A stretch of 64,000 nucleotides of DNA from the NCBI RefSeq assembly GCF_013167455.1, contig NZ_CP038328.1. One strand, given 5' to 3'. Source of the stretch: Escherichia coli O157:H7. GTDB taxonomy: Bacteria; Pseudomonadota; Gammaproteobacteria; Enterobacterales; Enterobacteriaceae. The position numbers are program-made. Each line of letters starts with the position of its first letter. Within the stretch, counting starts at the first letter, position 1. This document shows positions 1 to 6,000 of this stretch, piece after piece.

Positions 1-3000
1 CGATAATCACGCTGCGCCCCTTCGCCATCAGCCGGTTACCCATCGCCGCTGCAAGGTGATTTTTCCCGGTGCCGGTTTTACCGCTGAACACAAAATTCGT
101 GCACCCGGTCATCAGTTCGTCAGCTATGGATTTGGCCTGGCTCAGCGCGTATTTTTGCCCGTCGTTCTGCACCTGATAATTCGCAAACGAGCATTTGCTG
201 TGCAGAGGCTGGATGCCCGAACGATTCAGGATTTTTTCCACCCGCAACTGGTGATTCTGGCGGTTAATCTCCTCGCTGCGTTTTCGTCCTTCAGCAAGTT
301 GCCATTCCCGCCACTCCTCCACCGTCCGGTACGGTGGAACCGACGCCTGTGGTGCAAGTCTGCGAATACGTTCAAGAACCCCGGCTGCCGCAATGTTTTT
401 CATGCCACATCACCCCCTGAATCCCGGCGGAATTTCGGTATCCGGTTCAGAAATATGATTCACACAACGCTGGTTGTTCGTGCCGCTTACCGGGAGCAAC
501 CAGGGGTTTTCAAAATTCCGGTCCGGCCCAAAAAACGTCGTCGCTCGCTGAACAAATTCCGTTCCCGCTTTCCCGGTCGCCGCCAGGTATCTCGCGTAAC
601 GCCTCACACCATCCAGCATGGTCTCTGGTGGCACCCCCTCGCGCAATCTGGCCTTCCAGGCACTGAAAGCGGATTTCTTCGGGTTTGCCCCAGCACGCAA
701 CGGGTATTCCCGCCAGACCTGTTCGAACACATCCGGATAATCCACTCGTCCCACAGACTGCCCGGTGCTTTCCGGGACTACCCGATCGGCTTCCCGCTGA
801 ATGGCGGAATCGGCTTCAGGCTGCTGCAGTTGGTGTGATTGCTCCGACCCTGCGGTCATCACCTGCTGCACAGCGCCCGAATCGGCTTCCGGTGTCGTGC
901 CTGCTGGCTGACCAGGATTGACGGTCTGAACATCCCCTGCCTGGTTCGTGGTGTTTTTTTTGCCATGAACCATAGTGTTTTTGTCCTGTTCCTGTTCTTT
1001 CTCCTGCTCCTGTTCCTGTTCTTGGCTTCGAAGCCCCTTAAAAGCCCCTTCGAAGCCCCTTACCGAATTTCGGCTATTATTCCGCCTCACATCCAGATGG
1101 AAATCCGTTTTATATCTGTCGTAAAACACTGACAGAAAAGCGTTTTCAGGTAATGATGCATACTCATTCCTGACACCTGCACAACGGTTATCGCCAGGCT
1201 TCAACGTTTCCCCAACCTGCCAGGCTGCCATTTCATGGACCCAGACCATCTCTGCATCATGGTCATAGCTACAAAAACCAGCTTCAACAGCCCTTTTAAG
1301 CCCCTTTGAAGCCCCTTCCAGACCAAGCCCGGTTTCATGAGCAAGGTATAAAACTGGCAGGTAATACAAACCCAGCATATTTGCGTGAGGGGATGTCATC
1401 AGGTAAAAAGCAACAACTTGCGCTTCTGCACCCGCCTTTCTAAGTTCTCTCCCCGTTTCTCCCAGCCAGAATCGCGGAGAAACTTTTGCGTAATCACGCA
1501 TGGCTACCTCATCTGGTGCCGAACCTTCCTCCGGATATAATCTGTGGTTCCCAATCGACAGAACCAGAGGAGGTTCGACATGTATTTTTTGAAAAGCCTT
1601 TATCAGGCTCATGTATTAAATGTTGCAGCAACAAACCGCTGGTGTAACAGCCCCGAAATGCTCCCGGATTACAGAGCCTGGCTGCGCGCCGAAACATACC
1701 TTCGTCTCGACATATTGATTAGCGAACTTCAAAAAGAGACTGCATCCATTCATAACCTTCAGGGTATCGACGCTGTTCGCATTCTGGTATCGCGCCATAG
1801 TGCTCTCTCAATAATTGAAGTGCGTCATCTCTCTTTTTCTGAACTGATTTTCTTGCTTCAACCAGCTCTGGAATCAGCGAATATCCCGCCGGAAGTGATC
1901 CAATACCCACCTCATGTTGACGAGCAGTTACAAGATGTGCCATACAACCAGCGTGCTGGATTGACTCCCTGCTCAGAGGCTGAATGGGATCACTCTCTGC
2001 TGAAGAAATACCAAGATTTGTATAATCCTCAATAAGCCCGGCACACGCTTCTGCATCAGCCAGCTTTATTCTGGTTTCCTTGCGCTGTTCTCTGGCTGAC
2101 AAACGCCAGAGCAGCGCATTAGCTTTATGTATCAACCACTCTGCCAGCTCCACATCAGATAAACCGCCACGCCAGATGTGCGGACTGTTTTCGTAAACGC
2201 TCAGTGTCAATTTTTTGTCATTACTCATATTTATTACCCAATTAATGCACAGCCAGAGTGTTTCCTGCCGGGCCACCACGATTCATCTGATCGAACAGAA
2301 CGATCGCTGATGCAACGAAATCATCAATATCTTTCACCAGCCGTTCCTTCGTCTCTACCAACTCCCGAAAATAAGCGGAACTGTGGCTGCGCATTCGGGC
2401 CACCAGCGGAGGCGGCATCGCTTTTTCGATCGCTGGTAACAACGCCTGAATTTTTTTAACCGCATCAGGAGTGTCTTTCTCCACCCAGCGGAAAATTTTC
2501 TGAGTATTGCGAGCCATGGCTTCCGGATGGCTGTCGTCATACAGTTCCGGGAACGTCATTCCCAGCTCGAAATACGCTTTGGTAATTTTCGCAGCCGGTA
2601 CTTTTTCGCCGTCCGGATGCGCCCAGGCATTCATCGCCATGCGGATGTGTTCATGCTTGATTTTCATGAATCAACTCCGGCGCATTTGATGTGTTAACCT
2701 TACATCCAACAGGTAAACCGTCGGTTGGGTTAGGATAAATATCTGGGCGGATTTCATGCGGGGTAACTTCCCACTTCATTAGTTGGCATAACGGAATTAC
2801 CTGCTTTGGGGGAACGCCAAAGCTAAACCATTGCCAAACAGTCTGTTGAGCGACCCCCATATAACGACCTATTTCAGCCTGAGTGTATTTCTGCCTAATT
2901 TTTTCGCGAGTGCTATCTAGCATTTTGCCCTCCTCTAAAAACTATAAGCAAAGCCTACAATAAAAAACTGTATGCAATCAACAGTTTTTTATTGTGATGC

Positions 3001-6000
3001 TTTTAACAGTATTTACCTGTAAAATTGAATAATGATGAGCGCCCTAGAAGTATCTATGTACAGAATCAGCAAGCTTCTTCAGGAAACTGGATGGAGCCAG
3101 GCTGAGCTTGCCCGTAGAATTGGTGTGACACAACAAACTGTTCAACAATGGGTCAGCGGTAAGGCTACACCTAAAGCCTCAAGTTTGGATAAACTGGTTG
3201 AGGTTTCAGGGCATCCATTGCATTGGTTTTTATTGCCTCCTGAAGAGTGTGAGCAAATTTTCACCCCTGACACGATGAAAATTGGTCCTCGCCAACGCGA
3301 ACTGCTCCAAGCTTTTAGTGCGTTTCCTGAGGAAGACCAAGAAAAAATGCTTCAAGAAATCAAAGACAAGAAAAAATCAATGGAAGAAACCATTGCTAGG
3401 TGGCTGGCGGCACAAAAAAGCCGCCGGGCGTGACCACAGTACAAGAAGAGGAGTTATGCCATGGGTACAGCCCTTTCTCCGATAGTTTCAGAATTCGAAA
3501 CTACCGAACAAGAAAACAGTTACAACGAATGGTTGCGCACTAAAGTAACGTCAAGCCTTGCAGACACTCGCCCCGCAATTCCACATGACGAGGTAATGGC
3601 TGAAATGGAAAATCTTATTGCTCAAATTGCTGTAACTAACAAGAGCGAGTAATGTTACCCATTTTATGGCTACCGTCTGCTCGCGATGATTTGCGCCAGA
3701 TCATAACTTACATCGCCAAGGAGAACCCACCGGCAGCACGTAGACTAAAAATACGCATTGAAACATCGGTATTACCTCTATCTGAGCATCCGTACTTATA
3801 TCCACCAAGCGAACGGGTTTCTGGATTGAGAGAGATCGTGACCCACCCTAACTACATAATCCTGTACAGAGTAGCTGCTTCAAGCATTGAGATTGTAAGC
3901 GTGACACATTCTCGGCGACAATTTCCCTTCTCTATCTGAGTTGAACAATTTTCATACTCCCTCTTTCGAGGGATTTTTTTGCCCAAAACAACAATTAAAA
4001 ACTGTTGACACAAAAACAGTTTTTAATTGTAGATTACATACACCAACCACCCACCCCGCCCCACAGAACGCCGGGCAATACTTCGAGTTACCAAGCAGTG
4101 GTCAGGGGGTAAGTAGCCAGCCCGAGGCGTATGAACATGACGGCAGGGTTCAACTTTAATAACTATGCAGCAGGTTTTTGTTCCGCTACCCGGCGTTAAG
4201 GGGAAATGAGGTCAACATGGATACTATCGATCTTGGCAACAACGAATCTCTGGTGTACGGCGTGTTTCCCAACCAGGACGGTACATTCACCGCGATGACG
4301 TATACCAAAAGCAAAACGTTTAAAACCGAAAATGGTGCCCGTCGCTGGCTGGAAAGAAACTCAGGTGAGTGATATGGATTTCGACACAATCATGGAAAAG
4401 GCTTACGAAGAATACTTCGAAGGCCTTGCCGAAGGCGAGGAAGCTCTCAGCTTCAGTGAGTTTAAACAGGCGCTTTCCAGTTCGGCAAAATCTAACGACT
4501 AACGGAGTTAAAGATGGAATTTAAAGATTTACTAAAAGAAATCCAGGAAATTGCAGCACATGCACTTCACCAACGTCTGAACGAAGTTGAATTAGAATCT
4601 GCAACGAAGAAATACATTGATAATATGGCTCGTAATGTGCGCGATGCGTTTACCGGATTGTACTCTGTTTCGGTAACAAACAACCAGAATACTGAAGAAA
4701 CTGCAAAGCGGATTGCCTCGGTGATGGGTTTTCATGTCGAGGAAAAGTATTCAAAAAAAGAATTCTGGAAAACTACAAAAAAATTGCAGAGCGAGAACTG
4801 TCATCTCCTGCGGCAATCGCTTCTTTCTATGAGGAAAGTTATTCAGATGACACAGGATTACCGGAACTGCTCTCATTACTTGAAAAATTCGGAATTATCA
4901 TGAAAGGGACTGCGTCGGCGGATTTCACATACTCAATGATGGCTGCTGATGGAGAGCCTTTTCCTCCCGAACTTAAAATAACCCCCGGCAATCATCCGAT
5001 GGTAACAATAAGAGCAATAGAGAATTACTGGTTTAATCCAGTTCAACAATAGTTGGTCTTTGCAATATTTTTAATGGGCCACTACGCCCTTAATCTCGGG
5101 CGGCGTTTAACTCTTTATTCAGTAAATCAGACTGATACTGATTTGGCTTTGTAATGATACTGTCAAGTTTTGATATATGAAATTCAACATGTTCTGGACA
5201 GTTAAAAATGTAATAACCGCCCTTCTCTAAAAAGCCAGAAAGAGCGTTACAGGCAGGGCATGGTTTGTTTGGCATTTTATCCTCCATTAAGGGCTGAATT
5301 AAAAATGGAGACCAACACGCTGCTACGTGTGGTCGTGCGCCGGACACAGATAAGAATCCGGCACTGACAGTTTACTGAAAGGATATATCCCTGAAAAGTC
5401 AGGGCATAACACGAAAGTGCACGGCGAAGTCCTTCTCCCTTAGAGCCGTCGTTAAATTTAATTCGACCGTGCGCTTCCGGTTGTGGCAATCCGCGAAATG
5501 GCGCGGCGGTAAGTATGGCGGGGTTATTCTTTCCCCGTTGAGGACACCGGGTTGTCAGGTTGACCATACGCTTAAGTGACAACCCCGCTGCAACGCCCTC
5601 TGTTATCAATATTCTGGTGACATTTGGCGGTATCAGTTTTACTCCGTAACTGCTCTGCCGCCCTTTTTTAAAAGTGAATTTTGTGATGCGGTGAATGCGG
5701 CTCAGCGCACGCGGAACAGTTAAATCGGTAAAGCGGTCATTTGCTGAGTAACGAGAATGCTCTGTATCCGGCGTTAATTGTTAACTGGTTAACGTCACCT
5801 GGAGGCACCAGGCACCGCATCACAAAATTCATTGTTGAGGACGCGATAATGGAAAAGTTATCATGTAATGCCAGCACGTCTGAACTTCGTTTCGAAATTG
5901 GCGTTATCACTGGAGACAAAACATTTATTGAAGACGCCATTAAGCAGAGAAAACTCGAGCAGGACCTGTTAAATGAAGTATGCATTCCTTCAATGCTGGC

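Follow-up and report, generated by a model that had tools for sequence, protein, structure and literature searches.

The palindromes that flank the repressor and toxin-antitoxin genes of prophage CP-933M as probable right and left operator clusters built of 15-bp units

What are the two similar palindromes that bracket the repressor and toxin-antitoxin genes of a lambdoid prophage in Escherichia coli O157:H7, and which unit within them would be recognized by a protein? The palindromes lie in a 64,000-nt stretch of contig NZ_CP038328.1 (assembly GCF_013167455.1; the window, hereafter), the first 10.1 kb of which is the left arm of the prophage, with the integrase gene (9078-10097) adjoining yccA. 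An earlier note on this DNA had proposed that both are copies of a single operator, AAAAACTGT-N9-ACAGTTTTT, through which one repressor would control two early promoters in the manner of the right and left operators (OR and OL) of phage lambda. Judging from sequence comparison and from the analogy with characterized prophages, we conclude that the immunity repressor of this prophage, CP-933M, probably has its right and left operator clusters in these palindromes, and that the functional unit is most likely a 15-bp dyad.

The first site, AAAAAACTGT-ATGCAATCA-ACAGTTTTTT at 2962-2990, lies, as described in the earlier note, between the divergent cro-like and repressor genes, which are separated by 108 bp. 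The second, TTAAAAACTGT-TGACACAAAA-ACAGTTTTTAA, likewise exists, overlaps a TTGACA hexamer (4005-4010) and lies 5' of ydfA, but it spans 3995-4026 with a 10-nt spacer (arms ACTGT at 4001-4005 and ACAGT at 4016-4020), rather than starting at 3996 with a spacer of 9 nt. In a motif search allowing up to 3 mismatches, the supposedly shared pattern with N9 finds the first site only, and its core, ACTGT-N9-ACAGT, is not enriched when one mismatch is permitted (3 matches against 1.4 expected).

Both palindromes are longer than had been claimed, with perfect 15-nt arms, ACAATAAAAAACTGT and ACAGTTTTTTATTGT at 2957-2995 and ACAATTAAAAACTGT and ACAGTTTTTAATTGT at 3991-4030, and every arm is itself a 15-bp quasi-palindrome, ACA(A/G)T-N5-A(C/T)TGT. 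The pattern ACARTN5AYTGT occurs four times in the 64 kb of the window, against 0.24 expected, and these occurrences are exactly the four arms; none is present in a further 50 kb, the rest of the prophage with its left flank, which brings the scanned O157:H7 sequence to about 114 kb. A fifth unit with one mismatch, ACAGTATTTACCTGT, absent from the earlier note, lies in the same intergenic region as the first pair. Thus, there are five units (Table 1, numbered following the lambda convention): three at OR, 24-25 bp apart, and two at OL, 25 bp apart, with gaps of 9 nt (2972-2980) and 10 nt (4006-4015) within the two palindromes and about 1.03 kb between OR and OL. Three ACA-N9-TGT units in the 108-bp intergenic region were never obtained in 5000 local shuffles (P=0), and two such units at OL are also rare in local shuffles of that A/T-rich region (P=0.0006).

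The units accompany this type of repressor across bacterial genera. We compared six diverse loci, namely, the window and the loci of Salmonella, Raoultella, Pluralibacter, Morganella and a metagenome contig (L012), whose repressors are, respectively, 80 %, 68 %, 70 %, 69 % and 42 % identical to that of the window; the helix (T/A/S)QQT(V/I)QQW is kept in all five homologues. In 6/6 loci, ACA-N9-TGT units are located at -75, -51 and -26 from the start codon of the repressor gene (-74 for the first unit in L012), and OR3 deviates at the same half-site in every locus. The four relatives assigned to a genus carry two more units on the 3' side, over a TTGACn/TAnnnT promoter, so that, together with the window, the second cluster is present in 5/6 loci. 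When the half-sites of all 29 units are symmetrised, the first position is A in 58/58, the second C in 58/58, the third A in 57/58, the fourth A or G in 58/58 and the fifth T in 47/58, followed by an A/T-rich centre. The unit is 15 bp long in 29/29 cases, whereas the gap between units is 8, 9 or 10 nt.

The reverse scan, in which DNA only was used and 2.9 million viral contigs were searched for two units 9 nt apart, yielded 49 loci. In 42 of these, a repressor gene starts exactly 75 nt past the tandem, and the encoded repressors are 80-100 % identical to that of the window, with the helix GVTQQTVQQW. A second tandem is found in 31/42 loci, between +957 and +984 or, in loci that have lost the toxin-antitoxin pair, at +608. 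The seven exceptions comprise four periodic coding repeats, two apparent chance matches and one other divergent pair of helix-turn-helix (HTH) genes with QQ helices. The last of these exceptions, an unrelated low-GC viral contig (L046, 3246-3284), has two copies of ACAATTTTTAATTGT, 9 nt apart, between the divergent HTH genes, whose recognition helices start with TQQ; by sequence, operators of the same type appear to have been adopted here independently.

Variation among close relatives separates the units from their surroundings. Across about 44 loci of the E. coli type, the 4-5 nt beside OR1 fall into 13 haplotypes, and the units, as well as the adjacent TTGAT of the -35 hexamer, are invariant. 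At OL, the gap is 9 nt (TGACACAAA) in most relatives vs 10 nt (TGACACAAAA) in the window and the other O157-type loci; because of the one extra A, in the A-run at 4011-4015, the spacer of the PL promoter (see below) is 19 instead of 18 nt long and the units are 25 instead of 24 bp apart, which might make PL weaker. In every E. coli OR haplotype, each of two adjacent units is the perfect reverse complement of the other (15/15), and in other genera 9-14 of the 15 positions match; the changes that distinguish the OL pair from the OR pair are themselves complementary.

The units sit on three predicted promoters: PR, for ydaS and ydaT; PRM, for the repressor; and PL, for the ydfA-dicF-dicB unit (Table 1). 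The PR and PL modules are nearly identical in sequence, each read in its own direction, and the -35 and -10 hexamers overlap the unit ends in the same way across all loci. PR is kept in the six diverse loci as TTGAyn with a spacer of 17-18 nt and a -10 TAnnnT in 5/6 (TAGTCC in L012), and PL is kept in five as TTGACn, a 17-19 nt spacer and TAnnnT. The predicted PRM has a weak -35, and its mRNA would be leaderless and devoid of a Shine-Dalgarno sequence; because the -10 hexamer stands exactly 6 nt from the ATG, again without a Shine-Dalgarno sequence, in 6/6 loci, the leaderless state of the repressor mRNA appears to be conserved. The position of OR2, 44 nt 5' of the PRM start, together with the poor -35, would fit activation by OR2-bound repressor. 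In CP-933P, low levels of the repressor PaaR2 activate PRM933P, and the paaR2 and lambda cI mRNAs are leaderless (PMC8630535).

Table 1. Operator units, predicted promoters and genes of the CP-933M immunity region in the window
Feature	Coordinates	Strand	Remarks
OR1, ACAATAAAAAACTGT	2957-2971	–	exact ACARTN5AYTGT; fills spacer of leftward PR; 75 nt 5' of repressor ATG
OR2, ACAGTTTTTTATTGT	2981-2995	–	adjoins PR -35; centre 44 nt 5' of predicted PRM start; offset -51
OR3 (deviant), ACAGTATTTACCTGT	3006-3020	–	within PRM spacer; last T is first T of PRM -10; offset -26
OL2, ACAATTAAAAACTGT	3991-4005	–	last T is first T of PL -35 hexamer
OL1, ACAGTTTTTAATTGT	4016-4030	–	within PL spacer; last T is first T of PL -10 hexamer
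PR for ydaS/ydaT, predicted	2952-2981	minus	-35 TTGATT 2981-2976, 18-nt spacer, -10 TAGGCT 2957-2952, start near 2945
PRM, predicted	3020-3032	plus	-10 TAAAAT 3020-3025; +1 is the A of the repressor ATG (3032)
PL, predicted	4005-4035	plus	-35 TTGACA 4005-4010, 19-nt spacer, -10 TAGATT 4030-4035, start near 4042
ydaT-like	2242-2667	minus
ydaS, cro-like, 90 amino acids	2651-2923	minus	phrog_35, transcriptional repressor
Immunity repressor, 133 amino acids (probably PaaR1)	3032-3433	plus	N-terminal HTH_3; 434 repressor is best solved relative
PaaA1 antitoxin	3461-3652	plus	PaaA2 3ZBE, E 1e-20
ParE1 toxin	3652-3939	plus	ParE2 5CW7, E 3e-36
Intrinsic terminator, TCCCTCTTTCGAGGGA then T7	3958-3980	plus	closes repressor-toxin-antitoxin operon
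ydfA	4218-4372	plus	annotation of identical locus
DicF small RNA	5612-5663	plus	Rfam match, 76.9 bits
dicB	5849-6037	plus	annotation of identical locus
Downstream unit ydfA, ydfB, ydfC-like, DicF, dicB	4218-6037	plus

The two proteins encoded on either side of OR have very similar recognition helices, TQQTVQQW in the repressor and AQQTVWQW in YdaS. The best solved sequence relatives of the repressor are chains of the 434 repressor (E 3e-5 with phmmer; about 30 % identity over 57 residues), and Q23, Q34, Q35 and Q39 align with Q17, Q28, Q29 and Q33 of 434, the glutamines that contact ACAA, with Q17 opening helix 2; Q23, Q34 and Q35 are invariant in 17 homologues. The AlphaFold model of the repressor (mean predicted local distance difference test score 82) consists of a five-helix HTH domain at residues 4-67 (helices 4-19, 23-30, 34-41, 49-59 and 63-67), as in the HTH_3 fold, with residues 68-85 forming a disordered linker and residues 86-131 a helical hairpin, and Foldseek matches it to XRE domains including that of 434 (1PRA, TM 0.76). 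There is no LexA-like, RecA-cleavable C-terminal domain: the protein has 133 amino acids (aa), its precomputed Pfam matches are to HTH families only, and the C-terminal region is modelled as the hairpin. YdaS is predicted to bind the same units as the repressor; in CP-933P, the footprints of YdaS and PaaR2 overlap (PMC8630535).

The C-terminal tail of the repressor, ELLQxFSAFPE..Q....E.K.KK.SME..IARW.AAQK.RRA (residues ~89-133, encoded at 3296-3433), is common to repressors with three unrelated N-terminal DNA-binding domains: that of the window; PaaR2 (L064, 2501-2872), identified through the primers in Table S3 of PMC8630535, by which PaaR2 starts with MQKKEIRR; and a 166-aa type (L002, 1935-2435). 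The sequences suggest that DNA-binding domains have been swapped on a shared oligomerisation module. The Foldseek search with the model gave nothing informative for the tail, and a phmmer search of our copy of the PDB found no PaaR2 structure. A 132-aa E. coli homologue (P0062/L008) was considered as PaaR2 and rejected on the start given by the Table S3 primers.

Three other explanations of the palindromes have to be weighed against the 15-bp operators. The palindrome might be a single operator at each place, AAAAACTGT-N9/10-ACAGTTTTT, with one repressor dimer on the inner arms, as the earlier note implied; in the window these arms are perfect inverted repeats, and in the loci of the E. coli type they are invariant and enclose a variable gap, the behaviour expected of a spacer without protein contacts. 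The outer ACAAT/ATTGT halves, however, are equally invariant, and the half-sites of a single operator would have their centres 14-15 bp apart, on different helix faces, and at a distance that shifts (gaps of 8-10 nt) among loci with the same helix. The A-run of the motif is not kept in Raoultella, which reads ACAAGTACAAATTGT, or in Salmonella; OR3 and a single unit in L012 would be left without a partner; and the ACA half-sites would face away from the dyad, opposite to their orientation in 434 (PMC1636474). A single long operator is, accordingly, unlikely, and the pattern drawn in the earlier note is better understood as merging the inner halves of two adjacent operators across a gap that is hypervariable in sequence. 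Conversely, the 15-bp unit is preferred because its outer halves are conserved as strongly as the inner ones, its internal distance is fixed and the distance between units varies; because half-site centres 10 bp apart lie on one helix face and those 14-15 bp apart do not; and because its ACA triplets face the centre of the unit as in 434, and OR3 and the single L012 unit would otherwise stand without partners.

The 39- and 40-bp inverted repeats could, instead, act through DNA or RNA structure, as a cruciform, a hairpin or a bidirectional terminator. Single strands of the two repeats fold far better than shuffled sequences (z -7.6 and -5.6), 4030-3991 appears among the terminator-like elements that a scanner reported for the minus strand, and the 15/15 complementarity persists in all E. 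coli haplotypes, including the complementary pair of differences between OR and OL. Yet the stems are almost pure A/T, with 3/16 G-C pairs where an intrinsic terminator has a G+C-rich stem, and a proper G+C-rich terminator is already present at 3958-3980; the repeats overlap promoter hexamers; and Salmonella and Raoultella have kept the units and their positions but not the hairpin potential (z -0.9 to -1.8; complementarity 11/15). We regard a structural role as scarcely credible. It is also very unlikely that the sites are bound mainly by another protein, either YdaS alone, whose recognition helix is very similar to that of the repressor, or host LexA, whose SOS box the CTGT/ACAG motifs resemble. 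The LexA box is CTGT-N8-ACAG, and gaps of 9 and 10 nt in the window, and of 8-10 nt across loci, do not keep its defining spacing. The tandem, moreover, stands at the fixed 75-nt offset from the repressor gene in 42/42 loci having that repressor. The LexA-box and terminator readings were rejected on spacing, composition and conservation. As for YdaS, the Cro-like protein of CP-933P binds in the same region as the repressor does (PMC8630535); by this precedent, YdaS would be an addition to the repressor and not an alternative to it.

Several observations weigh against the interpretation of the palindromes as operator clusters of this repressor, or qualify it. The exact complementarity between adjacent units is not required by a model of 15-bp operators and is unexplained by it. 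The unit is one base pair longer than that of 434, so the docking geometry of the latter is not simply transferable, and the fold match is generic to XRE/HTH_3 domains, SinR and C-proteins scoring as well as 434. A consensus promoter scanner called 0/3 of the proposed promoters (their spacers are 18-19 nt, their hexamers weak, and the -10 of PR falls below the match threshold), so the promoter calls rest on conservation; the 19-nt spacer of PL in the window is suboptimal. PaaR2 differs in its DNA-binding domain and operators, which makes CP-933P a precedent for the architecture and not for the specificity. A literature search on paaR1 returned only unrelated papers on PAAR proteins of the type VI secretion system, and the library searched gave no description of the operators of PaaR1 or CP-933M.

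The geometry proposed in the earlier note, in which one element occurs both in the interval that separates the divergent repressor and cro genes and over the promoter heading ydfA-dicF-dicB, is nonetheless sustained. The element is associated with this repressor type across genera, and heteroimmune prophages with common flanks have different repeats in its place. The locus has the hallmarks of a lambdoid immunity region: divergent repressor and cro genes, multiple dyads over two divergent predicted promoters, a second cluster over the opposite early promoter, and operators that change along with the DNA-binding domain of the repressor in heteroimmune relatives. Four other immunity types lie between the same ydaT and ydfA flanks, and each has its own repeat at both places: AATAGCAnTGCTATT in L002; GTACT-N3-AGTAC in L003; ACACTTTTAAAGTTA-like units, which were not cleanly parsed, in the further immunity type L008; and GTTTAGTG-type repeats in CP-933P. 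The DNA common to the heteroimmune prophages resumes at about 4043, the predicted start of PL, and is present in 4133/5426 complete E. coli genomes.

Precedents for the architecture come from CP-933P (Jurenas et al. 2021, PMC8630535; Prolic-Kalinsek et al. 2023, PMC9986795), where OR and OL have been established by experiment, OR is footprinted by PaaR2 and by YdaS, PR933P and PL933P are repressed by the two proteins, the latter promoter about 100-fold, and PaaR2 forms octamers (PMC8630535), and from the Qin prophage, where DicA represses dicCp and dicBp (PMC10448788). CP-933M shares with CP-933P the gene order (ydaT, ydaS, leaderless repressor, paaA-parE, terminator, PL), close PaaA and ParE homologues, a YdaT that aligns end to end with the solved CP-933P YdaT structures (E 1e-82), the YdaT operator TTGATTTTCATGAATCAA and the C-terminal tail of ~45 aa in the repressor. 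In contrast, the DNA-binding domains of PaaR1 and PaaR2 do not align (TQQTVQQW vs SYLSQLMSGR), the YdaS proteins are not the same, and the operators, ACAR-N7-YTGT in CP-933M vs GTTTAGTG-type repeats in CP-933P, show no relationship. Homology of the repressor to PaaR2 does not extend over the whole length: residues 37-133 align (42 % identity), strongly so only in the last ~45 aa. Because the DNA-binding domains and the operators differ, CP-933M and CP-933P should, by sequence, be heteroimmune.

In Qin, too, a short non-cleavable repressor lies between a cro-like gene and ydfA-dicF-dicB, with operators at both promoters in a bistable switch; the downstream operon and its leader are homologous to those of CP-933M, and DicA-annotated repressors are weak full-length relatives of the CP-933M repressor (28 % identity). 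Qin differs in DNA-binding specificity and operators, in having no toxin-antitoxin cargo before dicBp and in having a known antirepressor, Rem, for DicA. With lambda, CP-933M has in common divergent PRM and PR promoters with three operators about 24 bp apart, a second cluster over PL past the cargo cotranscribed with the repressor (cI-rexA-rexB in lambda), a leaderless repressor mRNA and an OR2 positioned for PRM activation; it differs in that the repressor fold and operators are unrelated to those of lambda, OL has two units rather than three, OR and OL are ~1.03 kb rather than 2.4 kb apart, and no N gene follows PL.

The resemblance to 434 concerns recognition. The repressor shares with 434 the HTH_3 fold and the Gln-Gln at the start of the recognition helix with Gln at the sixth position; outer ACAA/ACAG half-sites face an A/T-rich, presumably non-contacted centre; and the helix motif is common to the repressor and its Cro-like counterpart. 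OR3 of 434, ACAAGAAAAACTGT, is almost the same as a CP-933M unit. Nevertheless, the CP-933M operator is 15 bp long (29/29 units) and not the 14-bp ACAA-N6-TTGT, OL has two units rather than three, and the repressor ends in a short helical tail of the DicA/PaaR type, without a LexA-like cleavable domain. The 434 operators, three at OR and three at OL, are 14-bp ACAAT-N4-ATTGT sequences with a non-contacted centre (PMC1636474).

We propose the following mechanism for the CP-933M switch. A dimer of the 133-aa repressor would bind each 15-bp unit through its 434-like HTH domain, and YdaS would compete for the same units. Repressor on the unit within a promoter spacer (OR1 in PR, 4016-4030 in PL) would exclude RNA polymerase, and the unit just 5' of each -35 (OR2 and 3991-4005) would add a second, probably cooperative, dimer; from OR2, the repressor could also activate the weak, leaderless PRM. 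The deviant OR3 in the PRM spacer would mediate negative autoregulation and be the preferred target of YdaS. In this way, one repressor would silence ydaS-ydaT-replication on one side and ydfA-dicF-dicB on the other, and would have itself transcribed together with PaaA1-ParE1 up to the terminator at 3958-3980. Binding, repression and activation, as well as possible OR-OL looping via the tail shared with the octameric PaaR2, are here inferred by analogy. This would be an ordinary lambdoid switch and not a new kind of system.

Less probable, and put forward tentatively, is the further idea that PaaR1-type repressors form a distinct recognition class, with 434-like QQ...Q helices, 15-bp operators and a C-terminal oligomerisation tail shared with PaaR2, the L002 type and DicA-like proteins, and that the mirror symmetry of adjacent operators in E. 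coli is selected, via a two-fold symmetric tetramer clamped around the -35 or via OR-OL pairing, and does not reflect shared ancestry. If true, immunity specificity could be readable from helix and operator. In one locus (L013, 1316-1353), the units read ACAC-N7-GTGT instead of ACAR-N7-YTGT, and both the repressor (SQQTVQRW) and YdaS (RQQNVSRW) have Arg for Gln at position 6 of the recognition helix; this single case of helix and operator covariation is suggestive and, at the sequence level, consistent with 434-like docking, and the pairing of Q-to-R with ACAR-to-ACAC exemplifies the kind of readout that a distinct class would allow.

The identity of the prophage and its neighbouring genes complete the picture. 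The same locus is found in O157:H7 strain Z1811, identical apart from a single base of OL1 (4016-4030), in its A/T centre; given the annotation there, which includes an 'ECs1072 family' gene, and the extent of the complete element from tRNA-Ser to yccA, the prophage is, by sequence, CP-933M/Sp4. The antitoxin and toxin genes directly follow a separate regulator gene, as in the three-component PaaR-PaaA-ParE loci (Hallez et al. 2010, cited in PMC8630535), and form a cargo in the same orientation as the repressor gene, in the position of lambda rexAB. We take the name PaaR1 for the 133-aa repressor to be that of Hallez et al. 2010. The repressor is probably PaaR1 because a homologue of paaR2-paaA2-parE2 has been placed on CP-933M (PMC8630535).

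The cargo slot between the repressor gene and OL varies. It holds PaaA-ParE in the window (3434-3990), a deleted remnant in L015 (7964-8169) and L062, a 112-120-aa protein (phrog_12509) in Salmonella and 133/152-aa proteins (phrog_34525) in Raoultella and Pluralibacter, and is empty in Morganella; in the relatives, its coordinates are 3077-3415 in L004, 3030-3431 in L006, 3050-3508 in L010 and 2897-3007 in L011. PADLOC had no match to the alternative cargo genes, for which a part in exclusion or defence may be considered.

An exact copy of the high-affinity operator of the CII-like YdaT, TTGATT-N6-AATCAA (TTGATTTTCATGAATCAA), is located at 2657-2674, overlapping the start of ydaT and the end of ydaS, like site OM in CP-933P; by analogy, it implies a possible PRE-like, YdaT-activated path to repressor expression here too. 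On the other side, the leader of ~176 nt between PL and ydfA (4042-4217) opens with a C-rich tract, CCACCCACCCCGCCCC, and is conserved among the heteroimmune prophages of more than 4000 E. coli genomes. The Rfam search for a leader RNA matched DicF only, and not this leader, which folds no better than shuffled sequences (z +0.74); it might serve in Rho utilisation or antitermination. No strong terminator was found upstream of dicF in the downstream unit. An annotated hypothetical gene lies on the minus strand at 5090-5275, between the ydfC-like gene and dicF, within the presumed PL transcription unit, and dicB is followed by exonuclease, xis and int genes.

Control of a toxin-antitoxin-bearing immunity region from OR and OL is already known from CP-933P (PMC8630535), as is that of ydfA-dicF-dicB from DicA in Qin (PMC10448788). 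In E. coli O157:H7, prophages contribute several copies of dicF and dicB, and work cited in PMC10448788 reports the production of four DicF orthologues under microaerobic conditions; knowing the repressor and its operators tells when the copy of this cell-division inhibitor and small RNA on CP-933M can be expressed. With PaaA1-ParE1 inside a predicted bistable switch, transcription of the pair would track the autoregulation of the repressor and not classical antitoxin autoregulation, as has been shown for the CP-933P paralogue (PMC8630535). The operator definition, ACAR-N7-YTGT in three plus two units, offers a simple rule for predicting immunity groups among ydaST-type prophages of Enterobacterales.

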